The notes beneath the pieces were generated by a model. The model made no database searches and was not told the DNA's origin. It worked only from the letters and a program-made list of their open reading frames with translations. From Deltaproteobacteria bacterium (GTDB taxonomy: Bacteria > Myxococcota_A > UBA9042 > PHBI01), in contig JACKFA010000004.1 of assembly GCA_020632715.1 (NCBI GenBank), positions 758,190 to 822,189 of the forward strand: DNA of 64,000 nt, in the 5' to 3' direction. Position 1 is the stretch's first letter; every line of letters begins with the position of its first letter. The position numbers were made by a program, and so were the translations under genes. Below are positions 1 through 51,200 of this stretch, piece after piece.

Positions 1-2899
1 GGGGCGCCTCCCACGCGTCCGGCGTCAGGCGCGACCCGTCGGCGAGGGGGGCCGCGCCCGGCGGCCAGGGCGTTGGCGGGTCGGCGAGCGCCGGGAGCGC
101 GCGGAACACCCAGCCCACGCCCTCGAAGAGCACGCCGACCGGGAGCCAGCCGAAGAGGTCCGCGCGGGCGGCGTCGTCGTCGGTCACGCGCGCGAGCTGG
201 CAGCCGTCGCCGACGTCGACGAGCTCCGCGGCCGCGACCTCGCGATCGCCCAGGCGCACGCGGGCGGCGCGCCAGCCGGTGGCCGCGGGGACGCAGATGG
301 ACACGGCGTGAGGCGCCCGCGTGACCGCGACGAGGCGCGCGGCGAACGCCTCGTCGAGGGCGCCCGTCGCGGGGGCGGTGACCTCGTGCAGGTGGACGGC
401 GCCGATCTTCGCCGGGCGCGGCGACATGTCGAGGCGGCTCGAGTAGCTCGCGGCGAGCGCGACGAACCGGAGCTCGGGGGCCTCCTGCGTGAGCACGAGG
501 AAGCGGTCGTCGGCGACCTGGAGCGCGCCGACGGCGATGTGCCCGGCCGGCAGGGCGAGGCGCCCGCGCAGCTCCGGGAAGACGCCCGTGTCCTCGACCC
601 GGAGCGCCGTGAGCTCGCCGGCCTGCCCCACCGCGGCGAAGCGGTACGCGCCGTCCTCGTGGGCGCGCGACACGCCGAACGCGGGGAACGCGACGCGGTC
701 GCGGACGGTGCCGTCGTCGGCGATCCAGGCGATCTCCGCGGGCTGGTCGCGCACGTAGCGGCTCAGGGACACGAGGGCGACGCCGTCCGGGAGGGTCGCG
801 GCCGCGATCATCGCGGTGTAACGGACGCCGAAGACGTCGTCCGTCGCGACCGGCACCCCGGGCACGGGCGCCGCCACGAACCCGGTCGGGAGCGACGTGT
901 CCGGCGTCTTCTCGCCGTCCCAGTCGGCGATCCACGAGCCGGCGACGGCGGTGACGAGGCTCAGGAAGCGCCCATCCCGCCACCACGAGGCGTACGCCGT
1001 GCCGCCGAGCAGCCGCTCGCCGCTCGCGCCGGGGGTCGCCTCCCGCACCTCGTTGACCCGCACCGTGTCGATGGGCGTCCAGCGCGTGCCGTCGGGGTGC
1101 ACGTAGGTGTCGAGGTGCGCGGGCGACTCGCGGCGGGTGCAGAGCTCCGGCGGGAAGGGCGTCGCGGACGGCGTCCCGTCCGGCTCGAGGTACGCGCACG
1201 CCGCGGCGAGCACGGTCTGGTTCACGGCGAGCGTCTCGCCGTTCGGCCCGAGGATCCCGTTCCGTCCGGTGCTGCGCCCGCGGACGAGGAGGTCGGTCAG
1301 CGCGTCGCCCTGGGACGACGTCACCGACCAGACGCGCTCCGGCGCGATGTCCTCGACGAGCGGGCCGTCTCCGAGCTCGGTCAGCGCGAGGTCCGGGGCC
1401 TCCTGGGGGACGGCGCCGAGGACGCCCGCGTCGGTGAGGTCGGGCGGCGCCGGGAAGCCGAGGTGCGCGAGGGTCACGGGGCGGCCGTCGGGGTCGACGA
1501 GCTCGGGGTCCTCGGCGGCGAACGGGGCGAGCTCGGGCTCCTGCGGGTCGTTGGGCGCGGGACCGTAGGAGAGCAGCGTGTCGAGGGCGTAGAGCCAGGG
1601 CTGGCCGGCGACCGGGCCGTGCCCTTCGAGGAAGTCGATGGCGCCGCGGATCCGGTAGATCTCGTCCGCCGGAGAGCGCGTCGTCGTGTGATTGCGGGGC
1701 ACCGGGACCGGCGGCCCGACCCACTCGACGCGCCACAGCACGCGCTCGCCGTAGACGGTCGCGACCGGCTGGCGCTGCGTCACCGTGAAGCGCCAGGTGT
1801 CCGCGGGATCCCAGCGCACGGCGCCGTCGGCGGCGCCGCCGTTGCCGAACGCGAAGACGCTGCCGCGCTCGAGCTGCCGGTTGGCCGTCCAGCTCATGCC
1901 GAGGCGCACCTCGCGCGGCACGAGCAGGATCGGCGGGTCGATGGGCCCGGCGTGGTCCTCGGCGAGGTAGACGTCGCCGTCGTCCGTCGCGATGACGCCC
2001 ACCCCGCCGCTGTCCGTGGCGTCGAACGAGCGGTCGAAGCGGTGGAGCACGCCGCGCGCGACGCGCCGCGCGCTGTGGGCGCTGGTGAGGTCCGGGAGGA
2101 GGCGGTTCAGGAGGTGCGCCTCGTCGAAGGCGATGGTCCGGCGGAAGGTCGGGCGGATCCCCTCGCCGAGGGGCCAGAGCGGGAGCGCGCTGGGCTCGCC
2201 GACGCCCGCGAAGAGCTGCCCCGCGACGGGCCCGGCCGCGCCTGCGTCCCCGTCGCCGCACCCGGCGAGGACGGCGGCCGCTGCGGCCGCCGCGAGCAGC
2301 GCCTCGCGGACGCGCGCCCGGCGCCGTCGCGCGCCGAGCCACCCGAGGGCGAGCAAGGCGGGGACGAGGCCCGCGCCCCCCGCGCCGCCGGACGCGCCGC
2401 AGCCGTCGTCGGCCGCGAGCGACGACGCCCTCCAGCCGCTCGGCGGGCTCGTCGAGACGCGCCCGGTCTCGCGCCAGGTCTGCTCGCCGCAGGTGATGAC
2501 GAGCGGCACGCGCTCGCCGGCGAGGTGCTCGATGACGAGCCAGGTGTGGAGCGCGCCGTACGCGAACGCGCTCGGGCCGGGGCGCCCGCGGGCGTCACGG
2601 TGGAGGCGCGGGTAGGCGTCGAAGCTCTCGTCGAGACGCGAGAGCGACACGGGGCCGGGGGTCTCGATGGTCGCGGTGACTCGCGGCGGCGGGGCGCCCG
2701 GGTCGTCGGCGACGCAGGTGGCGCGCACCTCGAGCACCCACGGGAAGCTGAGGATGGCGTCGGGATGGCCGCCCGTGTCGGGGTCGTGGTTCGGCGGCTG
2801 CGGGGTCTCGACGGTGAGCGTCTCGGCGCGGCTCGCGGGCGCAGCCCCGAGAACCAGGGCGGCCAGCGCGAGCGCGGCGAGGCCGGCAGGGCGGATCAT
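1..2899 (-). CDS. Secreted protein, 3' end beyond the window. ATG at 2899 gives the signal peptide MIRPAGLAALALAALVLGAAPASRA|ETL. At ~170-200 aa there is a MYXO-CTERM-like tail (DDGCGASGGAGGAGLVPALLALGWLGARRRR). It runs in-frame, with no stop, into a lipoprotein-type signal (ARVREALLAAAAAAAVLAGC) and a large globular region. Possibly two genes fused.
   Basis: I translated the minus strand by hand. The reading frame is open from 2899 to the window edge. The composition is protein-like (W/F/Y/H/K/N present). The plus-strand track ORF 308..4390 is the mirror frame. This ORF is absent from the track because it leaves the window. My hand reverse-complementation may contain errors. Confidence 0.5.
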   Translation of the reverse strand, partial: MIRPAGLAALALAALVLGAAPASRAETLTVETPQPPNHDPDTGGHPDAILSFPWVLEVRATCVADDPGAPPPRVTATIETPGPVSLSRLDESFDAYPRLHRDARGRPGPSAFAYGALHTWLVIEHLAGERVPLVITCGEQTWRETGRVSTSPPSGWRASSLAADDGCGASGGAGGAGLVPALLALGWLGARRRRARVREALLAAAAAAAVLAGCGDGDAGAAGPVAGQLFAGVGEPSALPLWPLGEGIRPTFRRTIAFDEAHLLNRLLPDLTSAHSARRVARGVLHRFDRSFDATDSGGVGVIATDDGDVYLAEDHAGPIDPPILLVPREVRLGMSWTANRQLERGSVFAFGNGGAADGAVRWDPADTWRFTVTQRQPVATVYGERVLWRVEWVGPPVPVPRNHTTTRSPADEIYRIRGAIDFLEGHGPVAGQPWLYALDTLLSYGPAPNDPQEPELAPFAAEDPELVDPDGRPVTLAHLGFPAPPDLTDAGVLGAVPQEAPDLALTELGDGPLVEDIAPERVWSVTSSQGDALTDLLVRGRSTGRNGILGPNGETLAVNQTVLAAACAYLEPDGTPSATPFPPELCTRRESPAHLDTYVHPDGTRWTPIDTVRVNEVREATPGASGERLLGGTAYASWWRDGRFLSLVTAVAGSWIADWDGEKTPDTSLPTGFVAAPVPGVPVATDDVFGVRYTAMIAAATLPDGVALVSLSRYVRDQPAEIAWIADDGTVRDRVAFPAFGVSRAHEDGAYRFAAVGQAGELTALRVEDTGVFPELRGRLALPAGHIAVGALQVADDRFLVLTQEAPELRFVALAASYSSRLDMSPRPAKIGAVHLHEVTAPATGALDEAFAARLVAVTRAPHAVSICVPAATGWRAARVRLGDREVAAAELVDVGDGCQLARVTDDDAARADLFGWLPVGVLFEGVGWVFRALPALADPPTPWPPGAAPLADGSRLTPDAWEAP

Positions 2900-3097
2900 C
2901 GTTCGCTCTCGGGGGTCTCGGTCACGGGATGGGCGGTGGTCACCCCGAGAGTAACGAAACAATCGCGGCATTTCGAATGGCGCGGGCACGAAACGAGAAA
3001 GCGGGCGCGCCGAGGGTTGACAGCCGGGGCGCGCTGCGGCATTCGACGAGTCCTGATATTGCGACCTATTGGTCATTGTATTTTCCGGGAGATCGTC

Positions 3098-4390
3098 ATG
3101 ACCCGTGTCCCCGTGTGCCTCGTCGCGCTGCTCACCCTCGCGCTCGCCGCGCCCGCCGCCGCGGCCGAGCCGGACGACGTCACCCTCGACGCGGCGGCGT
3201 GCGAGGGGCGGCCGCGCGTCCTCGTCCAGCACAACCGTCACTGGTCGGTCCTGTTCGGCGAGGTGAAGACGCCAGCGGAGCAGGCCGGGCTCCTCGCGTG
3301 CGCGAAGCCCGGGACGCGGGCGCGACACGACTGGGCGATCCCGGTGACGCTCGCGTTCCTCACGCGGTCGGACTACACCGGGCACGATCCCCTCGACGCG
3401 GCGCTCGGCGTCAACGCCTACCTGCGCCTGATCGCGCTGCGGCCCGACGCCGACAATCACGGGGCCAACGCCTGGTTCGCGGGGCTCGTGGCCGGCTACG
3501 AGCGCGTCGTCCCCGCCGCCGAGATGAAGGCGGCGCTCCGGGAGGCGCTCGACGCCGACGTCGCGGAGAAGCTCGCGGCGGGCGTGGACCTCGGCCTCGC
3601 GACCGCGCGGGAGGTCGCCCCCGAGGCGCCGGTGTGGCGGGAGTGGGAGGCCTACGCGGCCGAGCTCGCCGGCGTGAACCCGCTCCTCCGGGAGCTGCGG
3701 GCCGAGCTGCGCGATGGCGACGCCGCGTTGGCGCTGGCGCGGCTGGACGAGGCGCGGGCGAAGCTGCTGGCGGAGGCGAAGGACAAGGACGCGGCGGTGA
3801 AGTCGCCGGCCTTTCGCGAGCTGAGCGGCCTGGCGCGGGCCTTCGCGGCGGCGCGCGGCGTCCGACGCCCGTTCGAGCAGGCGCTCCCCGAGCCGCTCTT
3901 CCCGACCACGGCCCACGCGCGACCGCTCGAGTACCGGCTCCGCGAGCGGCCCGACTGGGCGCTCGACGGGTGGCAGCTCGGGCGCGACGCGGCGCGCGAG
4001 GGCGAGTGGAGGGCCAAGGACCCCGTGCTGGGCGGCGGCGCGAGCTACACGCTGCCGGTGAAGAAGGTCGAGGCGCGCGAGGACGGCACGACCCGGCTGA
4101 CCCTCGGCAACCGCGAGACGCTCTCCTACGCGGGGCAGTGCCGGACGGCGCTCGTCTTCATCGACGCGGCCGGGCAGGGCTGGGGAACCGACCGCTGCAC
4201 GGGCGACAGCGCCGTCCGGACCGAGGCGGGACCGGCGTCGGCGACGGTCCCGAGCGCGCAGCTCGCGGCGGCGAAGAAGGGCACCGTCGTCGAGCTGGTG
4301 GCGATCCCCGACGGCTCCGAGGCCTACCCGGTGCGGGTGTGGGACCGGCGGCTGAAGCGGGTCCTGGCGATCGGGCCGTTCGCGCTGTAG
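3098..4390 (+). CDS. Secreted hypothetical protein, 430 aa, with a Sec signal peptide (MTRVPVCLVALLTLALAAPAAAA).
   Basis: This is the 3' portion of track ORF 308..4390. The composition turns from R/G/E junk to protein-like at this ATG. Stop is TAG at 4388-4390. Confidence 0.7.
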   Translation: MTRVPVCLVALLTLALAAPAAAAEPDDVTLDAAACEGRPRVLVQHNRHWSVLFGEVKTPAEQAGLLACAKPGTRARHDWAIPVTLAFLTRSDYTGHDPLDAALGVNAYLRLIALRPDADNHGANAWFAGLVAGYERVVPAAEMKAALREALDADVAEKLAAGVDLGLATAREVAPEAPVWREWEAYAAELAGVNPLLRELRAELRDGDAALALARLDEARAKLLAEAKDKDAAVKSPAFRELSGLARAFAAARGVRRPFEQALPEPLFPTTAHARPLEYRLRERPDWALDGWQLGRDAAREGEWRAKDPVLGGGASYTLPVKKVEAREDGTTRLTLGNRETLSYAGQCRTALVFIDAAGQGWGTDRCTGDSAVRTEAGPASATVPSAQLAAAKKGTVVELVAIPDGSEAYPVRVWDRRLKRVLAIGPFAL

Positions 4391-4495: not shown

Positions 4496-6760
4496 CTACT
4501 GCGGCGCCTTCGAGATCCACGCCTTGTAGGCGTCGAGGTTCCGCGGGCGCCCGAGGAACTTCTCGACCATCGCGTCGGCGTCGACCGTGCCGCCCGGCTC
4601 GAGGATGTCGTGGCGGTACTCGAGCGCGGTCTCCTTGTTCAGGACGCCGTCCTTCTCGAAGCGCGTGAACAGGTCCTTCGAGATGGCGAGCGACCACTGG
4701 TACGTGTAGTAGAGCGCGCTGTAGCCGATGAGGTGCCCGAAGTTCGCGTAGACCTTGTCCTTCTCGTCGCGCGGGAAGGGGCTGTACTTGTTGTACATCG
4801 CGGTCGTGAACTCATCGAGGTCGAGGTCGGTCGGGTCGGCCTTGTGCAGGAAGAAGCTGTACGCCGTGTAGAAGATCTGGCGCATCAGCTGCACACCCTT
4901 CCCGAACTCGTCGGCGTCGCGCATCTTCTGCACGAGCTCGGCCGGGATGGCCTTGCCGTCCTTGTCCGTCGCGAAGCGCGCGAGCACCTCGGGGCGCCAC
5001 GCCCACTCCTCGAGGAACTGCGACGGGGCCTCGACGAAGTCCCACTCCACGTTGAAGCCCGCGAGCGAGGGGAACGTGCCCTTCCGCCCGATGAGCGCGT
5101 GCACGAGGTGCCCGAACTCGTGGAAGAACGTGACCACGTCGTCGTGCTCCATCAGCGCCTGCCCGTCGCCGTCCGCCGGGTCCGGGAAGTTGCACACCAG
5201 GCTCGCCCAGCCGAGGCGCCCGCTCTCGAGGCCCGTCTGGATGGGGAACGCCGCCGCGTGCTTGTACTTGTCGGCGCGCGGGTGCATGTCGAGGAAGAAG
5301 CGCCCCGCGGGCTGCCCGTCGACCTTGAGCTCGTAGGCGTCGACGCCCGGCGCCCACGTCGGCATGTCGAGCTTCACGAACTCGAGCCCGAAGAGCTCCG
5401 AGTAGAGGTCGAGCACGCCCTGCTTCACCTTCTCGTACGCGAAGTACGGCCGCACGCTCTGCGGGTCGAAGTCGAACTTCTCCTTGTGCACCACGGCGAT
5501 GTAGTAGAACCGGTCGTGCGCCATGATGTGCTCGGCGTCTGGCATGTCCTGCTTCTTCCGGGCGAGCAGCACCTGGAGGTCCGCGATGGTGCGCGGCTCC
5601 GTGACCTGCTTCACCTCCTTGATGAAGCTCTCCACGGTGTCCGCGGACTTCGCCATCTTGTCCTCGATGGCGTAGTCGGCCCAGCTCGCGTAGCCGAGGA
5701 GCGTCGCGAGCTCCTTCCGGAGCTTCAGCACCTCGAGCAGCACGTCGGAGTTGGCCGGGTACGCGCGCTGCGAGAACTCCTGATAGAGCGTGTGGCGCAG
5801 CTCGTCGTCCTTGACGTAGGTCTCGAACGGGAAGAAGTCCGGGTAGTCCGTCGTGACCTTGATCTTCCCGTCCACCGGCTTGTGGTTGTCGAGCCAGTCC
5901 TGCGGGAGCCCCTCGAGGCGCTTCGGGTCCTCGACCTCGATGAAGCGGACGTCGCCGTTGACGTTCTTGTCGTAGTCCTGCGAGAGCTCGACGAGGCGCG
6001 CCTGGATCTCGGCGATGCGCTTCCGCGTCGCCTCGTCCTTGTCGACGCCGGCGCGGCGGAAGTCGCGGAGCGAGTGCTCGACGAAGCGCGCGGGGATGGG
6101 CTCCATCCCGGCCGTCTGCACGCTCACGAGCGCGTCGTAGAGCTTGCGATCGAGCGACACGTCCGTCGTGAACTTGCTGAGATCCTGCTCGCACTGCTTC
6201 GCGGCGTCGCGCACGGCCTCGACCGGGTTCACGTTGAACATGAGCCCGGAGAGCCCGCTCGGCGTGTCGAGCTCGAGCTCGAGCTGGTTGAAGGCGTCGA
6301 CGAGCTCCGGCGACCCCGCCGGGAGCCCGTAGATCCGCTCGCGCACCGCCGCGGCGCGCGCGATCGACTCCTTGCAGTACGTCGCGAGCTTCTCGGCGTT
6401 CCCCCAGTCCGGGGTCTCGAGCATCTCCTTCGCGGCCGTCTCCCCGTCCTTCAGCTCCGCCGCCGCGGCGCCCGCGTCGGTCGACGGCTCCGCGGCGCCG
6501 TTCCCGGCGTCGGCCTCGGCCGGCGCGGTCGTCGGCGCGGTCGCCGCCATGCCGCCGCCACCGCCGACCACGTCCGCCACGGTCGCGGCCGGCACGTTCG
6601 GCGCCGCCGGCGCCTCGGGCTGGTGGGGCTTGCGGTCGTCGTGCGGCATGCAGCCCGAGCCGGCGAGCGCGGCGAGGGTGCCGAAGATCAGGGCCTTCTG
6701 GCCGAGGTGGCGAAGGAGCATCGAGGAGCCTCCTGACGGGGTGGCGCGATAGACCGCCAA
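4496..6760 (-). CDS. M3 family zinc metallo-oligopeptidase (thimet oligopeptidase / oligopeptidase A / Dcp-like), probable lipoprotein.
   Basis: HEFGHLVH zinc-binding motif (HExxH) in a ~750 aa protein typical of peptidase family M3. N-terminus is MLLRHLGQKALIFGTLAALAGSGC; a start at the internal Met (~6721) is possible. Confidence 0.9.
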   Translation of the reverse strand: MAVYRATPSGGSSMLLRHLGQKALIFGTLAALAGSGCMPHDDRKPHQPEAPAAPNVPAATVADVVGGGGGMAATAPTTAPAEADAGNGAAEPSTDAGAAAAELKDGETAAKEMLETPDWGNAEKLATYCKESIARAAAVRERIYGLPAGSPELVDAFNQLELELDTPSGLSGLMFNVNPVEAVRDAAKQCEQDLSKFTTDVSLDRKLYDALVSVQTAGMEPIPARFVEHSLRDFRRAGVDKDEATRKRIAEIQARLVELSQDYDKNVNGDVRFIEVEDPKRLEGLPQDWLDNHKPVDGKIKVTTDYPDFFPFETYVKDDELRHTLYQEFSQRAYPANSDVLLEVLKLRKELATLLGYASWADYAIEDKMAKSADTVESFIKEVKQVTEPRTIADLQVLLARKKQDMPDAEHIMAHDRFYYIAVVHKEKFDFDPQSVRPYFAYEKVKQGVLDLYSELFGLEFVKLDMPTWAPGVDAYELKVDGQPAGRFFLDMHPRADKYKHAAAFPIQTGLESGRLGWASLVCNFPDPADGDGQALMEHDDVVTFFHEFGHLVHALIGRKGTFPSLAGFNVEWDFVEAPSQFLEEWAWRPEVLARFATDKDGKAIPAELVQKMRDADEFGKGVQLMRQIFYTAYSFFLHKADPTDLDLDEFTTAMYNKYSPFPRDEKDKVYANFGHLIGYSALYYTYQWSLAISKDLFTRFEKDGVLNKETALEYRHDILEPGGTVDADAMVEKFLGRPRNLDAYKAWISKAPQ

Positions 6761-39173: not shown

Positions 39174-42100
39174 ATGCGCGGTTTCCTGCTCCGGCGTGCC
39201 CTCCTGGGCGCGCTCCTCCTGTCGTTCGTCGGGTGCGGTGACGGCACGACCGGCGCCGACACCGTCGAGCCGACCGACACGGCGACCCCGGACTCGGCCG
39301 ACACCGCGGACACCGCGGACACGGCCGACACCGCGGACACAGCGGACACGGCCGACACCGCGGACACGGCGGACACGGCCGACACGGCGGACACGGCGGA
39401 CACGGCGGACACGGCGGACACCGCCGACACGGCGGACACCGCCGACACGACCGACACCGCCGACACAGCCGACACAGCCGACTCCGACTCGGCTGACACC
39501 GCCGACACCGCGGACACCGGCCCCGACGTCGTCCTCGCCGACACCACGGCCCCGACGGTCACGCTCATCGCGCCCACCGAAGGCGCCACCCTCACCGGCG
39601 GCCGCGTCGTCGTCACGGGCGTCGTCTCCGACCCGCAGGGCGCCGATGATGGCGCCCCGACCGGCGTCGTCGCCCTCACCGTCGCCGGCGTCGCCGTCAC
39701 GCCGGCCCCCGATGGCGCCTTCGGCCTCACCCTCACGAGCGTCGTCCCCGGCCCGCTCGAGCTCCTCGTCCGCGCCACGGACGGGGCCGGCAACGTCGGC
39801 GAAGCCAGCGTCTCCGTCACGGTCGCCCGCGAGCCGCTCGCCCTCTCCGCCTCGCCCGCGTCGCTCTCCCTCGACGACCTCGGCCAGAGCGCCGTCCTCG
39901 ACGTCGCCCGTCACTACGCCGGCGGCGCCGCCGACCTCCCCGACCCGACCTCGCTCACGTTCGAGAGCTCGGCCCCGGCCGTCGCGGCCGTCACCCCAGG
40001 CGGCGTCGTCACCGCGCTCGCCCCTGGCACCGCGACCGTCACCGCGAGTGACGGCGCCCTCTCCGTCGCCGTCCCGGTCACCGTGGCCGCCGACACCACG
40101 GCGCCCGCGCCGCCCCTCGTCGAGACCTGGGTCCCCGTCACGAGCCTCGACACCCAGGTCTGGATGGGCCGCGCCGAGCCCGGCGCCTCCCTCGCCGTCA
40201 GCGGCCTCGCCGCGCCGCTCACCGGGGCCGTCGGCGCCGACGGCCGCTTCCTCCTCACGCTCCCGCTCCCGCCGCGATCCGCGCTCACCCTCGGCATCAC
40301 CGCCACCGACGCCGCCGGCAACACCTCCGAGCCCGTCAGCTACCCGATCGTCCAGGACCCGGAGGCCGTCGACGCAGGCGCCCTCCACCTCGCCGACGGC
40401 GACAACCAACGCGGCGTCGCGGGCCAGGCCCTCATGCGCCCCCTCCGCGTCCGCGCCACCACTCCCGCGGGGGACGCCCTCGCCGGCGCGACCGTCACCT
40501 TCACCCTCGTCGGCGGCGACGCCGCGCTGGCCGCCTCGGCCGCCGACCACGGCGCCGACACCCTCGTCGCCACCGCCGACGCCGCCGGCTATGCGCGCGC
40601 CTGGCTCATCCCGGGCGCGCCCGGCGATCTGCGCGTCCACGCCGCGCTCACCGGCGACGCGGGGCTCCCGGTCGTCTTCCGCGCGGTGGCCGCGTCCCCC
40701 CTCGTCGACGGCCGCACGCGCGTCTCCGGCGTCGTCCTCGACGACGCCATGGGCGCCGTCCAGGCCCCCGTCTCGCTCCTCCTCGACGGCGTGACCTACT
40801 TCCCGGACGGCGGCGTCACGAGCGACGACCACGGCCGCTTCACGATCACCTGGCCCGTGGCCGACCCGTCGGCGGTCCCCGCGACAGGCTTCCTCCTCGT
40901 CGACGGCTACAACGCGCTGAACGGCACCTTCGGCCGGCTCACCTTCGAGGTCGACGTCGTCCCGGGCATCGACAACGCCGTCGTGCGCCCGTTCTTCGTG
41001 CCCGTCATCCCCGACGGCGTCGCGCCCGCCCTCGACGGCGACGGCCGCCTCAGCGCGGACCTCGTGCTCACCCACGCGCTCGGCCCCGGCCGCGAGCCCG
41101 CGCGGGCCATCCTCGCCGCTGGCACGAAGATCACCTTCCCGGACGGGATCCCCGCCGCCCGCCGCCGCCTCTCCCTCCTCACGATCCCCATGGGCCGCGC
41201 CCCGATGCCGCTCACCGACGGCCTCTACTCGCGCACGATCCTCTCGCTCCAGCCCGGCGGCGCTCTCTACGACCCGCCCGTCGTCCTCGTCGTGCCGAAC
41301 CTCGACGGCGCAGCCCCCGGCGAGCAGGTCCCGCAGCTCATCTTCGACCACGACACGCACCGCTACGTCGTGAACGGCACGGCCACCGTCTCGGCCGACG
41401 GCCGCACGCTGCGCACCGACCCCGGGAGCGGGATCCGCGTCGGCGCGTGGCACGCCATCCCGCCGAGCCGCCCCGCCGAGCGCGGCGTCGCCCAGGTCAC
41501 GGTGGACGCGGGCGACGAGGGCGCCGACGACTGCGTCTGCGTGAGCGCCAACGGCACGACGGCGCCGTGCGCGCCGTGCTCCTCGACCACCGTCGCGTCC
41601 GCCCCGGGGCTCCCGCGCGCGCCCGGCGTCCCGACCTGCGCGACGACCGACGTCTCCGTGCCCGCAGACGGCGGCCCCCAGAGCGTCACCGCGTCGTGCG
41701 AGCGCAAGCGTTGCCGGGTCGACATCGACTACGTCGCGACCGGCGGCGTCGTGGTGCGGCGGGAGACCGCGCTCACCGCGCGCGTCGGGCAGGTCATCGG
41801 CGTCGGCGCGTCCGCGACGATCCCCGGCGTCGCCGAGACCGCGACGTGGCGCGTCGTTCGCGTCGGCGGCGCGGGCGCCGAGCCGATCGCCACGAGCCCC
41901 GCCACGGGTCCGCGCACCGGCTTCATCCCGACCGTGGCGGGCACCTACGAGGTCAGCGTCTCCGCCGCGGTCTGCGTCGGAGCCAGCGCCACGATCGAGG
42001 TCCTCGGCGACTGCTGTACGGAGGGGCTCATCACGGCGTGCGGCGCGGGTCTGAGGACGCTCCCGAACGGCGACGAGGTCGTGACCGCGCCCGCCAGGAT

Positions 42101-45100
42101 CGGCGCCGGCGGGCCGCTCTACCTCGAGGCGGCTCGCGAGGTGACGTGCATGCACTCCCTGGGCCGGGTGACGGGCGCCGGGATCGTCGCGATCAGCGCC
42201 CCTGGCGCGAGACGGGTCCTCGTCCGCGCGCTCGCGGCCTACGAGATCGAGGGCAGCACGGGCGCCCTGGCGATGCCGCTCCCGCCGATCCTCGCCGGCC
42301 GGAGCCGGGAGATGACGAGCCTCGGCACGAGCGCGCCGATCGTCGGGCGCGACGAGGTGCGCTTCACCGAGCCGACCTGGCGCTTCGCGCTCCGCCTGCC
42401 CGGCGGCGAGCGCGTCGTCTACCAGCCGGCGGTCTACCACGCAGGCCCGAGCGGCTTCTTCGGCGACCGCTTCGTCCGCGAGGGGGCGCCGCTCAGCGCC
42501 GCCGCGACGGGGCCCGTCCGCGTCCTCCGGTGGGAGGTCCGCGACGACGGGATCGGAACGCTCGAGACGACGCTCCAGGTGCGCCTCGGCGCGCTCGCGG
42601 ACGGGCTGACGTTCGACCTCGACGGGCGCCTCGGCAGCGCCGGCCTCTTCCTGTCGGTCCCCGAGCAGCGCCTCCCGGACAAGGCGCCCCCGAGCCGTGG
42701 CTGGCCCGATCCGTCGCCCTCGGACCCGCCGGGCGTCGTCTACTTCGTGAAGCTCGAGGGCGACGTCGAGAACCCGACCTGGTTCTTCGACGAGGAGGTC
42801 CCGCCCGCGCGCGTCATCCGGCTCAGGTCGATGATCGACCTCGGGCCGACCTTCCCGAGCCGCTGCGGGCCGATGACCCCGTTCGCCGCGAGCTGCTCGG
42901 GCACCATGGAGCTCCTGCCGTTGAAGCTCCGCGCCGCGTGCCCCTTGACCGTGATGAGCCTGTCGGCGCCGACCTGCCCGCGCCCGAACGAGGTGGGCGA
43001 CTGGGCCGTCGGGGAGGTCGCGCTCCGCTACGAGGGCGGCCGCGCCACGCTCGACGGGCGCGCCGTGGCGAGGACCGACGATCTCGAGCTCGTCCGCCGC
43101 GAGCTCATGCTGACGGCACCGATCGGGCTCAGCGGCGTCCTCGAGCGCCGCGGCGGGGTCCTCTCGCTCGGCGCCGAGCTCCGAGGGGTCCCGGTCAAGG
43201 TCAACAACGACCTCCACCTCCAGGGCGGGATCAGCGCGTTCTCCTATCGCTCCGAGCCCGTCGCCGCCTCGCTCAGGATCTCGTCGTCCGAGGCGCCGCT
43301 CGGCGCCCAGTTCGAGCGGGACCTCGACGGCTACCAGGCGTCGCTCTGCCTCCCGAACGGCACCACGCGCCCCGTGTGCGCGAACCCGTACGCCGACGAC
43401 GCGCGCAAGGCGCCCGTCAGCGCGGCGGGGACCGTCGAGATCCAGCCCGGCGACGCCGACCCGACGCCGGGCGGCGGCGTCTCCATCACCGTCGACCCGC
43501 CCGCGGACGACGACGAGGACGACCCGATCGAGCTCGGCGACGGGGAGTGCATGGACTACCCCGACGAGTCGCGCTGCCTCGCGTACGGCCTCGCCGGGCC
43601 GCGGACGGCCATCGTCCAGGACGCCCCCGCCGGGACCTACAAGCCACCGGCGACGGGCCCGCTCTCGACCGTCACGGTCGCGCCCGCGCACCCGGCCCCC
43701 GACGCGAGCGCCGCGACCGTCGACGCCGCCGCGGACGACGTCGGCGGCTACCTCGTCACCGTGGACCCGCCTCCGGGCGCGATCGTCGTCGACCTCGGCT
43801 TCCGCGCGGGCGCGTTCGGGCCGGTCGTCACCACGGTCCCCGGCGACGCGGCCGGCTCGGTTCGTTTCACGCCGACCCTCGAGCGCCTCGCGGCGGTCCC
43901 CCAGACGTCCGACCAGAACGGCACCGCGCGCGCGAGCGTCCAGCCGTGCGCGACGTTCGTGCGCGCCGGCGGCGGCACCCCGTCCGTGACCACCTGCGGC
44001 CCGTTCCGCGAGGTGAAGGCGCCCCGCGGCGCCGCCCCGAGCCCCCGCTACCACACCGTCGAGCGCGGCCCCACCGGTCGCGTCGAGGCCGCCGCGACGG
44101 TGCCCTCGGGAGACGGCGCGCCGTTCTCGCTCACCGTGCTCGCGCCCGCGACGGGCGTCGTCACCGTCGACGTGCCCGGCGTCGGGCCCGTCGTGGTCGA
44201 CCTGCGCGTCTCGGACGGCGGCGCGAGCGGCGAGGCGACCCTCCGCTACGGCCTCGACGCCGCGGCCGGCCGCCGGATCGACGCCGCCGCGTACGCGCGC
44301 GCCACGTCGCGCCCGCTCGAGGCGCTGTCGCCGCTCTTCGCGCTCGAGACGACCGCCGCGAGCGACGGGAGCCACGGCTACGCCTACGTGCTCCCGGACG
44401 ACCTCCCGACCGGGATCTACGACGAGGGGCAGAACCCCTACGCGACCGGCGACCTCGTGGCGATCATCTCGCCGCCGCCGACGCGGGCGCGGCTCGGCGC
44501 GGCCTGGAGCTATCGCCCGGAGCTCCTCATCGGCGCCCCGACGACGGTGACGCTCCGCGTCGCGGAGGGGCCGCCCGGCGTCGCGGTCGCGGACGGGCTC
44601 GTGACGTGGACGCCGCCCGCGACGTGGCCCGTCGGGCCCGTGACCATCGCGATCGTGGCCCGAACGGCCGGCGGCGCCGAGGCGCGGCAGACGTTCGAGC
44701 TCGCCGTGAGCGCGGCCGAGACGGCGCCGGCCATCGTGCGCCCGGCGCCCGTCCTCGTCGGGGCGACCGACGGCACGGCGTTCCGCGTCGACGGCGCCAC
44801 GGCGGTCACGGCGGCCGTCGTCGGCGGGCCGACGGGCGCGCAGCGCGTCGCGGTCGGCGTCCTCGCGGCGGACCAGGCGCCGAGCCTCCCGGGGGTGATG
44901 CCGCGCTACGTGCTCGACGCGGACGCCATCCGCGTCGCGACGACCGGGCTCGAGGCCCCGCGGATCGAGATCACGGCCGAGAACGACGCAGGCGCGACCA
45001 CGCTGGTCGCCCAGGTGCTCGTCCTCGATCGCGACGGGGACGGGCTCCGCGACGAGTACGAGCGCCTCGTCGGGACCGACCCCGACGCCGCGACCGACCC

Positions 45101-48100
45101 GGACACCGACACCGACGCGGACGGCCTCACCATCGCCGAGGAGCAGGCGCTCAGGACCCGCGACGACCTCCGCGACAGCGACGGCGACGGCCTCGACGAC
45201 CCTGACGAGGCCGCGCTCGGCGCGAGCCCGCGCCTCTCCGACAGCGACGGGGACGGCCTCGACGACGGCGCGGAGGTCCTGACGCACCTCACCCTGCCGG
45301 ACGTCGCGGACAGCGACGGCGACGGCGTCTCCGACGGCGACGAGGTCATCGGCGGCACGGACCCCACGGTCGCCCTCGACGAGGACGACGACCAGGCCCC
45401 GGACGACCTCGAGCGGCTCGTCCTCCACACCGACCCGACGAACCCCGACACCGACGGGGACACGCTCACGGACGGCGCCGAGGTCGAGCTCGGCACGGAC
45501 CCGCTGGTCCCGGACACCGACGGCGACGGGATCCTCGACGCCGACGAGGCCGCGCTCGGGCGCGACGCCACCGTCGCCGAGGAGGAGCCGCCCGCGCTCG
45601 TCGAGCCGGCGCTCCTGACCGGCACCTCGGCCGCGCAGGTGCTGCTCCCCTTCGAGGCGCGCAGCTTCCCGATCACCGTCGCGGTGGATCGCGACGGCGA
45701 CGGCCTCCCCGACGCGTTCGAGGCGCTCTACGGGCTCGACCCCGACGACCCCGCCGACGCGGCGAGCGACACCGACACCGACGGCCTCACGGCGCGCGAG
45801 GAGCTCGGCCTCGGGACCGATCCGACGCTCACCGACACCGACGACGACGGGGTCGACGACGGGCAGGAGCGCGCCGACGGGACCGACCCGAACGACCCGG
45901 ACGACTTCGACGGCGGCGGCGCCGTCGTCTCGCTCGACGTCGCGCCGGCGAGCGCCGTCGCCGTCTACCACGCGTACTTCGGCCCGCGCCGGCTCCAGCT
46001 CGCCGTGGCCGGCGTCAAGGCGGCCGGCACGCGCGTGGACCTGACGTCACCCGCCGTGGGGACGGTCTACAGCGTGGCTCCGGCCGGCGTGGGGGTCTTC
46101 GACGCCGATGGCGCCTTCGTCCCCGCCGCGCCCGCGAGCGACGACCCCGTGGACGCCGTGATCACCGTGACGGCCCGCGGCGCGACGGCCGACGTGCCCG
46201 TGCGGATCGCGCGCTTCACCCCGCGCGACGTCGGCGTGGTCGCGACGCCAGGCGCGGGCGGGCCGATCGCCGCCGTCCCGGGCGCGGACGCCGTCGTGGT
46301 CGCGGTCGGTGGCCAGGTGCAGGTCGTCGACGTCGCCGATCCGGCCACCCCGCGCGCGCTCGCCCTGACGACCGTCACCGCCGCTCCGATCGCGGCGCTC
46401 GAGCCCTTCGGCGACCGCGTGCTCGCCGTCGCCGGGACCGAGCTCGTCTCGCTCGCGGTGGATCCGGCGGGCGAGGTGACCGTCGCCGCGCGCGCGACGC
46501 TGCCCGCCGCCGGTCGCGGGGTCGCGGCGACCGCGTCGGGTGGCGCGCCGGCGGCGTTCGTCGCGACCGCGAGCGGCGCCGTCGAGGTGCTGCTCGACCG
46601 CGGCGAGGTCGCCGCGACCTGGTTTTCCGGCCAGGACCTCACCGCCGTCGCCGCGGTGCGCGAGCGCGTCGTGGGTGCGACCGCCTCGGGGGCCCTCCGC
46701 GTGCTCCTCCGGGGGCCGAACACCACGGTCGGCGCGGCCACGACGGGCCGCCCGACGACGGCGTTGCTCCACCTCGGCGGCGAGCTCGTCACCAGCTCCC
46801 GCGGGCAGGGGCTCGATCGCGTGCGCCTCGACGTGGTGCCGCCCGCGGTGCTCGCCCAGAGCGACGCGGCGTTCCTCCCGACCGGCCCCGTGGCGCGCTA
46901 CCGCGACGTCGTGCTCGCCGGCGCCGAGGACTTCGGCCAGGCGATGACCTACCACGGGCTCGGCCTCCCGGGCGCGCTGCCGTTCCTCGGCGGCCACGGC
47001 TACGAGCTCGTGCCGGACGGCTCGACCCGGGGCGTCGCGGTGCTGGGGCCGCTCCACGCCGCGGTGGTCGCCGACGAGCTCGACGAGCGCTGGGTCGTCG
47101 TGGCCGAGCACGACCTCTTGACCGACCTCGCCGGCGTCCCGCCGACCGTGGCCCTCCTCGAGCCGCGCCCCGGCGACGCCTTCGACGAGGGCAAGCGCGT
47201 GCTCGTCCGCGCCCGCGCGGTCGACGACGTCGCGGTCGCGCGCGTGACCTTCCTCGTGGACGGGGCGCCCGCGGCGACGCTCACGGCGCCTCCCTGGGAG
47301 GCGCGCGTGCGGCTCCCGGAGGTCGACGCGGACGGCAGCGCGACGATCGCCATCGTCGCGGCCGACGTCGGCGGTAACAGCGCCGAGGCCAGCGTCGTCG
47401 TGGGCGTGCGCGCCGTCACCGACGACACGGACGCGCCGCTCGTCGCGTTCGGCGCCCCGCGCGACGGCCTCACCGTGCCCGCGAGCTCGGTCGTGCCCGT
47501 CCGCGTCAACGTCGTCGACGCCTCGGCCATCCGCGCGGTCGTCCTGAAGGTGGACGGCGTCGAGCGCGCGGTCCTGACGGACGGCCCGCCCTGGGTCGCG
47601 AGCGTGCCGACCCCGGTCCAGCCGGCGTCGGCGACCGGTCGCTACCCGCTCCGCGCCGAGGTGACCGACGTCGCCGGGAACGTCGGCGTCGCCGAGGTCG
47701 AGCTCGTCGACGCGGGCATCGACCTCGTCGGCCTCGGCGTCACCGACATCGCCGCGGGCGACGGGGCGTACGACGGCGCCACCATCCTCATCCGCGGCGG
47801 GACGGTCGCGATCGACGGCGCCCACTCCTTCGCGCGCGTGGTCGTCGGCGCGGGGGGCGTCCTCACGCACCCGCCGACGGGCCTCTCCGGCGCGGAGCCC
47901 GGCCTCGACCTCACCGCCACCGCCATCGTCGTCGAGGAAGGCGGCGCCATCGACGTGAGCGGCAAGGGGTACCGCGGCGGCTGCGGCTCGGGCGGCGCGG
48001 GCTGCCCCGCCGGCACCTCGGGCCGCACGGTCGGCAACGTCGACGGCGTCCCCGGCACCGCGTCCGCCTCGCACGGCGGCGTCGGGCGCTCGACGGCCAC

Positions 48101-48203
48101 CGCGGCGGCTGCGACCTATGGCGAGCTGCTCGCGCCCACGGCGCTCGGCGCGGGCGGCGGCGCCGGCCTCGGCGCGGCGGCGCCGGCGGCGGGCGCGTGC
48201 ACC
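39174..48203 (+). CDS. Giant surface lipoprotein, intact part (>3000 aa). Contains (ADT)n linker, Ig-like/Big_2-like domains, Cys-rich segments, thrombospondin-type-3-like Ca-binding repeats, and the first beta-helix-like ~1 kb repeat. The frame continues, disrupted, to ~51398.
   Basis: MRGFLLRRALLGALLLSFVGC. Frame 0 is coherent to ~48200. Beyond that the sense is recoverable only by frame switching. Confidence 0.75.
39280..39525 (+). repeat. ~27 tandem copies of a 9-bp unit gacacSgcS encoding (ADT)n.
   Basis: Visible directly in the sequence; translates to DTADTADTADT…. Confidence 0.85.
45020..45900 (+). repeat. Thrombospondin type 3-like Ca-binding repeats (DxDxDGxxDxxE) inside the giant lipoprotein.
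   Basis: DRDGDGLRDEYE, DSDGDGLDDPDE, DSDGDGVSDGDE, DTDGDGILDADE and similar. Confidence 0.7.
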
Positions 48204-51200
48204 TCGTCGCGGACACCCTCACGCTCGAGGCGCCGTGCGCGCCAACGGCGAGGACCTCGGCGCCATCGGCGTGAGCGGCCACGGCGGCGCCGGCGGGAGC
48301 GTGCTCCTCGACGTCAGGACGCTCACGGGCAGCGGCGCCATCGACGCGCGCGGCGGCGACGGCGCCAGCGCCTCAGGCGCCGAGCACGGCGGCGGCGGCG
48401 GCCGGATCGCCGTGATCGCGGACGACGCCGCCGGCTACACCGGGCTCGCGAGCGCCGCGGGCGGCGCCGGGAGCGCCACGGCGACGGCGGGGCTCCCGGG
48501 CGGCGCGGGCTCGGTCGCCCTGTCCTTCGGAGGCGCCGCTCCCCTCGTCGTCATCGACGACGGCGGGGCCAGCGACGGCGCCGAGGGCGACGTCCTCGGC
48601 GACGCGGACCTCGCCGGCGCGGACGTCGTCGTGCGCGGATCGGCGCGCGTCCGGCTCGCGCGCCCGCTGTCGGTCGGCTCGCTGCGCCTCGAGGACCAGG
48701 CGCGGCTCGCGCACGGCGCGGCGACCGCGAGCGACGACGCGGTGGGCGTGGACATCACGGTGACCGGCACGCTCACCATCGGGAGCGACGCCGCCATCGA
48801 CGTGAGCGGGCGCGGGTACCGCCAGGGTCGCACCTTCGGGAACAGCGCCCAGAGCGGCCTCATCGCCGGCGGGCGCGGTGGCGCCTCGCACGGCGGGCGC
48901 GGCGGCGGCAGCTCGGGGGTCGTCTTCGGCGACCCGATGGCGCCGGCGACGCTCGGGGCCGGCGGCGGCTCCTTCGGCGGCTCCGACTGCGCGGGCGCCG
49001 GCGGCGGCCGCGTGCGGATCGTCGCGGGGCGCTCGCGCTCGACGGCGCCATCGTCGCGTCCGGCGCGCCGGGCGACGAGACGTGCCAGACCGGCGGCGGC
49101 GCCGGGGCTCCATCGACGTCACCGTCGGGCGCGCTCCTGGGCGATGGCGCGATCGCCGCGAACGGCGGCGCGGGCACCGTCGGGGCCTCGCGTCCGGCGG
49201 CGGCGGCAGGCGCGTCGCGGTCCGCTACGAAGACGCGAGCGCCTTCGACCTCGCGGCCATCAGCGCCTTCGGCGGGGCGGGGGCCGCGAACGGCGGCCCC
49301 GGCACGGTCCTCCTCGCGGAGGCCGGCGAGGCCCCGGTGCTGCGGGTCGCGAGCGGCGGGCTCACGGCCGAGCACGCGGCGCCGCCGCGCGTCCAGCTCG
49401 GCGCCTGGAAGCTCACGACGAGCGGGCTCACGGCGACCTCGTTCAAGGTGCAGGGCTCGAACCTCTGGGTCGGCGACTTCCTCGCCGGGACGCGCGTCGG
49501 GTTCGCGGGCACCGCCGAGACGTGGCTCGTGACGGGGGTCACGGCGGCCACGACGACGGTGCTCGTCGAGGACCGGACGCCCGACCTCTCGGCGGCCGGT
49601 CTCGTCCAGAACGCCGCTGCCATCGGGATCGTCGACCTCGGGGCGGTCCTCGACGTCGACGGCGCCTCGGTCGAGCTCGACGGCGAGTGGCGCCTCCTGG
49701 GCCTTCGCCTCGCGAACGGCGCCCGCCTCGCGCACGCGCCGACCGCGACCACGGTGGGGCGCGCGCCCTCGGGGCTCGAGCTCGCGGTCGAGGGGGACGT
49801 CGACATCGACGCCACCTCGGCGATCGACGTGAGCGGCCGCGGCTTCCTCGACGCGCGCACGCTCGGCGACTCGACCGACGGCAACCTCGCCGCGGGCGAT
49901 CGGACGGGCGGCTCGCACGGCGGCGTCGGCGGCGGCGCCGATCCCGGGATCCCCTACGGCGACGTGACGTTCCCGCTCGCGCCCGGCGCCGGCGGCGGCA
50001 AGGGGCGCTTCGGCGCCGTGGCCGGCGGCTACGGCGGTGGGCGCGTGCGGCTCGCGGCGACCGGCGACATCGCCCTCGACGGGCTCATCGCCGCGAACGG
50101 CGCGGACGCGCCAGTCACGGGCCAGCGCGACGGGGCGGCGGCGCAGGCGGCGCCATCGTCGTCGAGGCGGCGACCTCGCGGGCGCAGGAACGGTCAGCGC
50201 GAGCGGCGGGGCGGGCGGCCGGGTACGGCGGGCGATCCGGGCGGCGGCGGCAGCGGCGGGCGCGTCGCGCTCGTGTACGACGACGCGGCGGGCTTCGATC
50301 TCGACGGCGTCGCGGTCCTCGGGGGCTCGGTGGCGCCGGCGCAGGTGCTGCCGGGACCGTCGCGCGCCTCCCGCGCGGCGACGTCGGCCGGATCGTGGTC
50401 GACGACGGCGGGCTCACCGCCACGCTCGAGACGACGCTGGGCGTCCAGATCGGCCGCGCGCGCGTCACCTCGACGCCGCAGGCCCAGAGCCTCGCGCTGA
50501 ACGGCGGCCAGCCGCGCTTCCACCCGGGCTCGCTCGCGGGGCTCGAGCTCCGCTGCGAGGGCGTCGCGGGCAGCTTCACGGTCGTCGGCAACACGACGAG
50601 CGCGATCCAGACGGACCCGGCCGACGGCGACCTCACCGGCCTCCTCGCGAGCGGCGCCCGGTGCTTCGCGGACCGCGCTCTCGACGCCGTGATCGAGGTC
50701 ACGGGCGGCGCGCGTCTCGCCCTCGACGATCGCTTCACGATCGCGGGGCTCGTCGTCGACGGCGGCGGCGTCGTGACCCACGCCGCGACCGGCGTCGGGA
50801 CGAGCTTCGCCGACGGGCGGCTCGACCTCGTCGTCACGGGGGACGTCGTGGTCGCGGGCGACGGCGCCATCGACGTGAGCGCGCGCGGCTACGCCGGCGG
50901 CGGCGTGGGCGTCGGCGCGAGCGGGAAGACCGTCGGCAACGTCAACGGCTCGGCAGCCGGCGCGGGCGGGTCCCACGCGGGCGTCGGCGGCGGCGCGGGC
51001 GCGGCCGCGGTCTACGGTGACGGCGCGGCCCCCGTCACGGTGGGTGGCGGCGGCGGTCAGGGCGCGGTCGCGGCGGAGTCGGGCGGCCGCGGCGGGGGTG
51101 CCGTGCGCCTGACGGTCGGCGGCGAGCTCGCGCTCGACGGCGCCATCCGCGCGGACGGCGCGGCGGCCCTGGGCGCGGGCGGCGGCGGCGCCGGCGGCTC

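Follow-up and report, generated by a model that had tools for sequence, protein, structure and literature searches.

When a bacterial gene carries, in the middle of one uninterrupted reading frame, a sorting tag of the kind expected at the end of a protein and directly behind it a lipoprotein signal of the kind expected at the beginning of one, is a stop codon missing by error, or is this how the gene is built? The question is raised by a partial gene on the minus strand of a 64,000-nucleotide stretch of DNA from a Deltaproteobacteria bacterium (contig JACKFA010000004.1, positions 758,190 to 822,189), here called the window. A first-pass annotation had noticed a MYXO-CTERM-like sorting tag at this place and proposed that two genes had been fused by a lost stop codon or a sequencing error, or, if the arrangement was real, that it was a tandem fusion of two exported proteins. 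The missing stop is a real and old design, not an error: the same in-frame junction occurs in six independent genes whose products are 23–39% identical to the window protein. This overturns the first proposal and supports the second. The parts of the gene are listed below, where residue k lies at window positions 2900-3k to 2902-3k of the minus strand.

ATG at 2899 to window position 2, minus strand: gene under study, partial, running off the window start; 966 codons and no stop by automated translation
2825..2899, minus strand: N-terminal Sec-type signal peptide, residues 1–25, MIRPAGLAALALAALVLGAAPASRA followed by ETL, from translation and inspection
2435..2824, minus strand: N-terminal module (N-module), residues 26–155, predicted eight-strand beta-sandwich with two invariant Cys
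2318..2404, minus strand: internal MYXO-CTERM-like tag, residues 166–194, matched by TIGR03382; parts of it are kept in all seven proteins that carry the junction
2354–2356, minus strand: in-frame TTG, codon 182, inside the tag helix; the sole ATG, GTG or TTG between codons 159 and 224
2258..2329, minus strand: internal lipoprotein signal of the signal peptidase II (SPII) type, residues 191–214, with the lipobox LAGC and Cys214 aligned to the +1 Cys of relatives
2..2257, minus strand: C-terminal module (C-module), residues 215–966, a large, mostly beta lipoprotein body, truncated by the window start

The gene is one continuous open reading frame (ORF), coding throughout. Automated translation of the minus strand from 1 to 2899 agrees with the earlier statement that no stop follows the tag, and there is none between about 2310 and 2340, the interval in which a stop would have refuted that statement. 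By itself such a stop-free run is weak evidence, since the GC content of the region is about 77%. A spurious plus-strand ORF of 1360 amino acids (308–4390) lies antisense to the gene under study as a by-product of the high GC content; a real secreted protein is plausible only for its last ~430 codons (from about 3098), and it serves as a reminder that open frames alone prove little in such DNA. The GC content at third codon positions (GC3) stays at 0.93–1.00 in a single frame from 2899 to 1, with constant phase across the junction. This means that both halves are coding in one frame, and a frameshift or indel at the junction is ruled out. Two features back the start at ATG 2899: GC3 rises there, and the intergenic stretch before it (2900–3097) has a lower GC content.

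The ease with which open frames arise at this GC content is one point in favour of an artefact, in which a sequencing or assembly error, or a recent point mutation that destroyed a stop, made two neighbouring genes into one. It also speaks for an artefact that the source is a metagenome-type assembly, and that the sole identical public contig offers no second confirmation at the level of reads. This contig, JAGQJQ010000782.1 from the metagenome-assembled genome (MAG) GCA_020430565.1 ('Myxococcales bacterium'), matches window positions 49–2159 over its whole length of 2,111 nt with 100% identity and ends 160 nt before the junction; the public record there is a partial hypothetical protein in which the architecture is hidden.

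The protein begins with a signal peptide that, by inspection, has a positive n-region, a hydrophobic core and an A-x-A-like SRA site, and translation confirms the domain behind it, reported earlier as about 150 residues and now put at about 130–140. The tag peptide DDGCGASGGAGGAGLVPALLALGWLGARRRR (residues 164–194) then passes directly into ARVREALLAAAAAAAVLAGC (residues 195–214). The tag Cys, Cys167, lies at 2399–2401 within DDGCGAS. It is followed by a hydrophobic, uncharged helix at residues 176–190 (2330–2374; mean Kyte-Doolittle hydropathy 1.78) and by RRRR at residues 191–194 (2318–2329). This tag is not C-terminal, as 772 further codons follow up to the window edge, and in the relatives the proteins run on for about 300–1,500 residues. 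The earlier description of a classic lipoprotein signal that follows in frame, RRRRARVREALLAAAAAAAVLAGC (residues 191–214), leading into a large domain that leaves the window, holds as well. Its n-region RRRRARVRE (six basic residues and one acidic) is common to the tag and the lipoprotein signal, its h-region ALLAAAAAAAV has 11 residues, and its lipobox LAGC fits the canonical pattern [LVI][ASTVI][GAS]C and ends in Cys214 at 2258–2260. From the loop to this Cys there are 14 residues, the h-region plus lipobox positions -3 to -1. Both Cys167 and Cys214 fall inside 2230–2420, the site marked in the first-pass annotation. The likeness to MYXO-CTERM is borne out by one hidden Markov model (HMM) of the two, TIGR03382, on which the window tag scores 17.8–21.1 bits against a cut-off of 15.85; it did not stand for TIGR03901.2.

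An exhaustive HMMER search over 1.84 billion cluster representatives found ten related proteins. Four of these, P0002 (1712 amino acids), P0003 (1850), P0004 (1851) and P0005 (715), match the window protein in a single stretch that covers both halves. These four and two more distant relatives, P0009 and P0010, carry the same composite module of Cys, helix, RRR(RR), short hydrophobic stretch and lipobox Cys, and are the six genes mentioned above. They come from Logan runs (P0002, P0003, P0010), NCBI MAGs (P0004, P0009) and a JGI metagenome (P0005). The members with a named source are both from myxobacterial MAGs, namely the identical fragment ('Myxococcales bacterium') and P0004, which NCBI labels "hypothetical protein [Archangium sp.]". 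The junctions of the six read as follows.

P0002: SGCSAV…CLAWLVAGLLW-RRRRR-LRPLLLAVVCGVLAVGC
P0003: ASCSTGAGLLPLAMLVFIG-RRRRR-GLVLLTYALAAC
P0004: SGCSSSGAGAVAGAALLVFA-RRRRR-AVATAVAMAGAVLTAC
P0005: SSCSTSGLSLFAPLALLGL-RRRR-VTRRASSIDRGSSLSAVTSSAAVVALVLLSSC
P0009, more distant: ESCAVAGGAGLPLLALLWLW-RRR-AAIALGLTLSAC
P0010, more distant: QNCSSAGTLLAPILALLWLW-RRR-AVVALGVTIVGC

Other searches added little to this set. A word-index search with the N-terminal half gave no matches, and with the downstream half the sole match was the identical partial MAG protein. A profile of nine C-core sequences returned nothing from the word-index search, where even known members were missed, and a scan of GTDB species genomes and JGI metagenomes with the protein and alignment A2 gave no confirmed locus.

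Across the seven carriers (the window protein and these six) the parts of the junction keep their order and their character. A Cys stands at the equivalent place in every one of them, 3–15 residues before the helix and in the context [SGN]-C-[SGA]. There are 3–5 consecutive Arg, and the loops are net positive with 3–7 Arg or Lys and no more than one acidic residue. The second hydrophobic stretch has a length of 11–18 residues and ends in a lipobox (LAGC, AVGC, LAAC, LTAC, LSSC, LSAC or IVGC) that is canonical in six of the seven, P0002 having AVGC. A regular expression for the tag found no second site besides the junction in the six-frame translation of the window, and one for the composite module matches all seven carriers and leaves out the other four family sequences; the pattern is therefore not due to chance. 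Mean pairwise identity is 40% for the junction (a figure inflated by low complexity), 28% for the N-module and 37% for the C-core, so that judged from these sequences the junction shows no decay and is at least as conserved as the domains that flank it. As for the tags as such, that of P0004 passes both MYXO-CTERM models (TIGR03901.2 24.4 against 20, TIGR03382 21.0 against 15.85) and that of P0005 passes TIGR03382. When the complete junctions are scanned, four of the seven have a MYXO-CTERM model as their top NCBIfam match, and when the tags are scanned by themselves three of them reach one cut-off or more.

The second half of the junction can be compared with true lipoprotein signals, as the family also has stand-alone forms of the C-module that begin with one: P0008 (MRWLAFALAVPPAGC…) and P0007 (…RRGAAVAALLLATGC…). 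The +1 Cys of these two shares an alignment column with Cys214, and this column is invariant in alignments A1 and A5 and nearly so in A3. In the window protein the lipoprotein signal is internal, about 190 residues from the N-terminus, and in relatives up to about 390. No still-split ancestral gene pair was found upstream of the stand-alone P0007 and P0008. Upstream of P0008 there is an unrelated COX3-like gene on the other strand. A hundred nucleotides upstream of P0007 (L006:807–1361, plus strand) lies a gene for a predicted lipoprotein of 184 amino acids (…LALIWACGG…), which is unrelated to the N-module (E = 0.31). It ends in …VDLVGGCGC and a stop, which is the GCGC signature of MYXO-CTERM without the helix or the Arg tail.

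The first halves of the carriers are of two kinds. P0009 and P0010 have N-modules that share 41% identity, and these do not detectably resemble the window-type N-module (hhalign probability 0.2%, a test limited by the shallow profile, with Neff 2.3). A neighbour-joining tree of the C-core, in which the root is not resolved, places the window-type carriers together (98.5% bootstrap for the split) and P0009 with P0010 (100%), with the stand-alone forms outside. From this tree the fusion is either old, with a later exchange of the N-module, or it arose twice. Three of the window-type carriers, P0003, P0004 and P0005 (L003:501–6053 and L004:1471–7026), are longer at the N-terminus by about 230 residues, in which there are thrombospondin-type-3-like Asp repeats and a CxxDDDCDG motif. 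This extension has a lipoprotein signal of its own, which would give the segment before the junction potential lipid anchors at both ends. In P0005 the last ~125 residues, after …WRIEWVGPPIPHGL, are rich in Arg, Ser and Pro and no longer align with the family, probably due to a frameshift in its 3.6-kb JGI contig.

What could such a junction do? A lipoprotein signal has to sit with its n-region on the cytoplasmic side of the membrane and its lipobox on the outer side, which is opposite to a MYXO-CTERM tag. One cytoplasmic Arg cluster shared between them satisfies both orientations, and from this we infer a hairpin with both modules outside. With slightly better than even confidence, we read this as a real gene for a polyprotein-like precursor, in which a conserved membrane hairpin of two helices, made of two sorting signals, connects two extracytoplasmic modules; its topology and both cleavages are deduced from the sequences. 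The N-terminal signal peptide would take the N-module over the inner membrane via Sec, and the tag helix would halt the transfer and leave the RRRR loop in the cytoplasm. The Arg cluster would then double as the n-region of the lipoprotein signal, with the h-region re-inserting in an N-in/C-out orientation and the C-module being exported. Lgt and LspA would lipidate Cys214 and cut just before it, which would free the C-module as a lipoprotein. On the other side Cys167 would be lipidated and the myxosortase (MrtX) would cut after it, freeing the N-module for surface display through a type II secretion system (T2SS). A hairpin peptide of about 45 residues would remain in the membrane, and two lipid-anchored proteins would result, made at the same place and at a constant 1:1 ratio.

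The N-module side of this scheme follows the published MYXO-CTERM pathway: after export by Sec, the tag helix holds the protein in the inner membrane and the Arg cluster faces the cytoplasm (Guo, Haft & Wall 2025, PMC11980579). In the later steps the invariant Cys is lipidated, with Lgt as the leading candidate, and after cleavage by MrtX the protein reaches the surface through the T2SS (PMC11980579). A C-terminal FLAG placed behind the tag was lost in MrtX+ cells and retained in an mrtX mutant (PMC11980579), so residues beyond the tag do not block processing. The same authors state that sorting tags can function in mid-protein, with LPXTG and archaeosortase examples (PMC11980579). There is also a wider but more tentative idea, which we hold at somewhat below even confidence: a portable 'double-sorting joint' with one Arg cluster, two intramembrane proteases and two lipid-anchored products at 1:1, reusable with unrelated N-terminal cargo. 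That one product would go to the surface via the T2SS and the other by the lipoprotein route is part of this idea and may be held with the same reserve.

Several observations weigh against the two-signal precursor. On TIGR03901.2 the window tag scores 14.4–15.2 bits, under the cut-off of 20, and the tags of P0002, P0003, P0009 and P0010 are under the cut-off on both MYXO-CTERM models. The window tag has a single Cys instead of the frequent GCGC motif. There is a Pro in its helix, and in the tag helices of five of the seven carriers overall, while MYXO-CTERM helices have been described as free of Pro and charged residues (Haft 2023, bioRxiv 10.1101/2023.06.07.544157). The AlphaFold2 model has helices at residues 180–187 and 196–213 with a break at the Arg run, with pLDDT (predicted local distance difference test) below 50 there. 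The family is tiny, with ten sequences that are all from metagenomes or MAGs and none from cultured strains. No report of Lgt or LspA processing an internal lipobox was found in the literature, and no gene for a myxosortase, Lgt, LspA or the T2SS is present within the 64-kb window. It is the myxosortase step, more than that of LspA, that suffers from the mixed HMM scores and the Pro residues.

This imbalance is what an alternative with half of the processing builds on. Here, LspA frees the C-module and the leftover hairpin keeps the N-module anchored to the inner membrane, the tag being a mere stop-transfer helix with a basic cluster. The evidence for the lipobox, with an invariant Cys aligned to true signals, is stronger than that for the tag, and the lack of a myxosortase in the window fits as well. 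A mere stop-transfer helix does not account for the Cys that precedes it in the same context in all seven carriers, nor for MYXO-CTERM being the best NCBIfam match of four junctions and three tags passing a cut-off on their own. The source-named carriers are also myxobacterial, and the MYXO-CTERM system is present in all examined genera of the Myxococcota (Guo et al. 2025, PMC11980579). We consider half-processing unlikely, and find it the best of the alternatives.

Also unlikely, and a shade more so, is that there is no cleavage at all, and that one chain sits in the inner membrane by the hairpin with both modules in the periplasm, the Cys residues being kept for lipidation alone or for helix packing. 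The topology argument would stand irrespective of cleavage, several tags are under the cut-offs and five have a Pro, and for LspA acting on an internal signal no precedent was found. A permanent anchor is harder to reconcile with the second stretch, as its 11–18 residues are the length of a signal h-region and short for a stable transmembrane helix. It also leaves aside that a lipobox ends this stretch in seven of seven carriers, that the stand-alone relatives have this Cys at the +1 position of a true N-terminal lipoprotein signal, and that the tag Cys is kept in all seven.

Another explanation would be that the C-module is mainly made as a separate lipoprotein from the TTG at codon 182, with the fusion as a minor by-product. 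The first-pass annotation had raised a possible in-frame TTG start, and this codon does exist (2354–2356) and would yield a plausible lipoprotein signal, MLALGWLGARRRRARVRE-ALLAAAAAAAVLAGC. What did not stand is its use as a way out: the 20 nt upstream contain no Shine-Dalgarno-like motif, and since no stop codon precedes the TTG, translation cannot terminate before it and the fusion product is made regardless. A conserved Met at that position is absent from the relatives, and internal initiation is in our view improbable. An artefact, finally, is hardly credible and is refuted as a general explanation, as the GC3 frame is unchanged, the junction is conserved like the surrounding domains, and a shared artefact in seven independent assemblies is implausible at 23–39% identity.

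How does the two-signal precursor compare with known systems? With the MYXO-CTERM/MrtX system (TIGR03901, TIGR03382) the window protein shares a Cys, a hydrophobic helix and an Arg cluster behind an exported domain with a signal peptide, as well as the myxobacterial source of the named family members and a pass on one of the two HMMs. It differs in that the tag is internal with more than 770 residues after it, in the single Cys as opposed to GCGC, and in the Pro found in five of seven helices. An internal MYXO-CTERM as such is already published: MXAN_5598 of Myxococcus xanthus has an 'atypical' internal tag and was interpreted as a TraA-like adhesin fused to a TraB-like beta-barrel/OmpA protein, for which the authors propose processing and surface anchoring of the N-terminal part (PMC11980579). 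There too the tag is internal, with a surface-type module on its N-terminal side and an envelope module on its C-terminal side. Its C-terminus is an outer membrane beta-barrel with OmpA, whereas here it is an unrelated lipoprotein body, with RCC1/WD40_RLD-like repeats in the relatives. The paper describes no lipoprotein signal after the tag, and it concerns a single gene and not a family with two cargo types; this comparison is with the published description of MXAN_5598. About 1 kb from the P0009 gene (L007:5172–6965, minus), a 597-amino-acid protein with thrombospondin-type-3 and OmpA domains in a TraB-like architecture is encoded on the other strand. In an alternative assembly of this region (L008) the genes are called differently.

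The second signal has its counterpart in ordinary bacterial lipoprotein signals (Lgt/LspA), with a positive n-region, a short h-region, a lipobox and a Cys aligned to the +1 Cys of P0007 and P0008. It is unlike these in its internal position and in that its n-region is at the same time the basic tail that ends the tag before it. Other tags that are not C-terminal have been reported, namely a PGF-type signal in a Haloferax volcanii ArtA substrate (Abdul Halim 2017, as cited in PMC11980579) and a mid-protein LPXTG (Navarre & Schneewind 1994, as cited in PMC11980579). As they are described there, these are also cases of a C-terminal-type tag being recognised with polypeptide beyond it, although the enzymes are an archaeosortase and a sortase with their own signals. 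The citing text mentions no later signal peptide that would re-export the downstream part. The NCBIfam model NF058595 'invert_tail', a 'lipo-invert' putative C-terminal anchoring domain, aligns weakly, over the central profile positions ~33–86 of 113, to the segment with helix, Arg run and lipobox in three of the seven junctions. Its scores were 12.9–16.2 bits for the window, 15.2 for P0002 and 10.7 for P0003 against a cut-off of 37, and the other four carriers had no match. Membership was rejected, as all scores are under the cut-off and the model describes a C-terminal tail.

In viral structural polyproteins such as those of flaviviruses, an internal signal comes after a stop-transfer helix, and the resulting hairpin yields two lumenal domains that membrane proteases separate. 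These viruses use the eukaryotic endoplasmic reticulum and signal peptidase I, there is no lipidation, and there is no evolutionary relationship. Still, this may be called the nearest analogy in logic. In the literature found, there is no description of a lipoprotein signal directly behind a MYXO-CTERM tag with a shared Arg cluster, of such a joint being conserved down to about 25% identity, or of its use with two different N-terminal modules. A search for internal lipoboxes or lipoprotein polyproteins found nothing either. That no publication was found on 'lipo-invert' (NF058595) is a caveat on this novelty.

The two modules themselves give few clues to function. A Pfam scan found no domain match in either half, and NCBIfam likewise none outside the junction signals. 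For the N-module, the predicted structure pointed to a generic beta-sandwich, from which no function could be assigned; its two invariant Cys fit an oxidising, exported location. The AlphaFold2 model of the 966 residues has a pLDDT of 61, and a function for the C-module was sought by Foldseek, which gave weak matches of beta-propeller type with template modelling (TM) scores of at most 0.17. In full-length relatives the C-module goes on for about 750–900 amino acids and is Cys-rich with RCC1/WD40_RLD-like repeats.

The surroundings of the gene vary, and no gene neighbourhood is conserved across the relatives' loci. Beside the P0002 gene (4599–9737), 48 bp away and divergent, a gene on the minus strand (L002:3673–4551) encodes a 292-amino-acid CPBP/Rce1-like intramembrane protease (PF02517). 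Three of its four NCBIfam matches, the best included, are to sorting-signal proteases (MrtA with 83.6 bits, MrtS and MrtJ), none of which reaches its cut-off. This protease may serve as a dedicated enzyme for the processing. Such a neighbour is seen in this one locus, with none beside the other relatives and none in the 64-kb window. In the window itself, a gene on the plus strand at 12342–13340 encodes a secreted protein of 332 amino acids with a Hint/pretoxin-HINT domain at its extreme C-terminus (PF07591, E = 2e-14). On the minus strand at 4496–6760 there is an M3-family peptidase (PF01432, E = 1e-105) with an apparent lipoprotein signal (…LAALAGSGC) after an N-terminal extension, for which the start codon is uncertain. 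A very long plus-strand ORF at 39174–49532 opens with a lipoprotein signal (…LLLSFVGCGDG). Here the GC3 phase indicates that the coding frame switches near 48150, 49100 and 50300 and that the ORF extends beyond the real gene; between about 48150 and 51545 there is coding signal in other frames.

It is worth noting what such a gene means for annotation. Pipelines that expect tags at the C-terminus and lipoprotein signals at the N-terminus miss both here, and the two family members named by NCBI are both a "hypothetical protein". For the biochemistry of sorting, MYXO-CTERM tags and myxosortase have been linked experimentally only recently, with Lgt as those authors' leading candidate for the lipidation. 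In this family a MYXO-CTERM-type Cys and the lipobox Cys of Lgt/LspA share one hairpin, about 32–52 residues from each other and oppositely oriented in the membrane, which makes the protein an internal control for which enzymes lipidate and cleave each site. If the joint works as proposed, it would be a natural bacterial envelope polyprotein and a ready substrate for setting MrtX against Lgt/LspA at opposite ends of a hairpin. If the processing is true, these bacteria would be using a virus-like polyprotein strategy to make stoichiometric pairs of envelope proteins.

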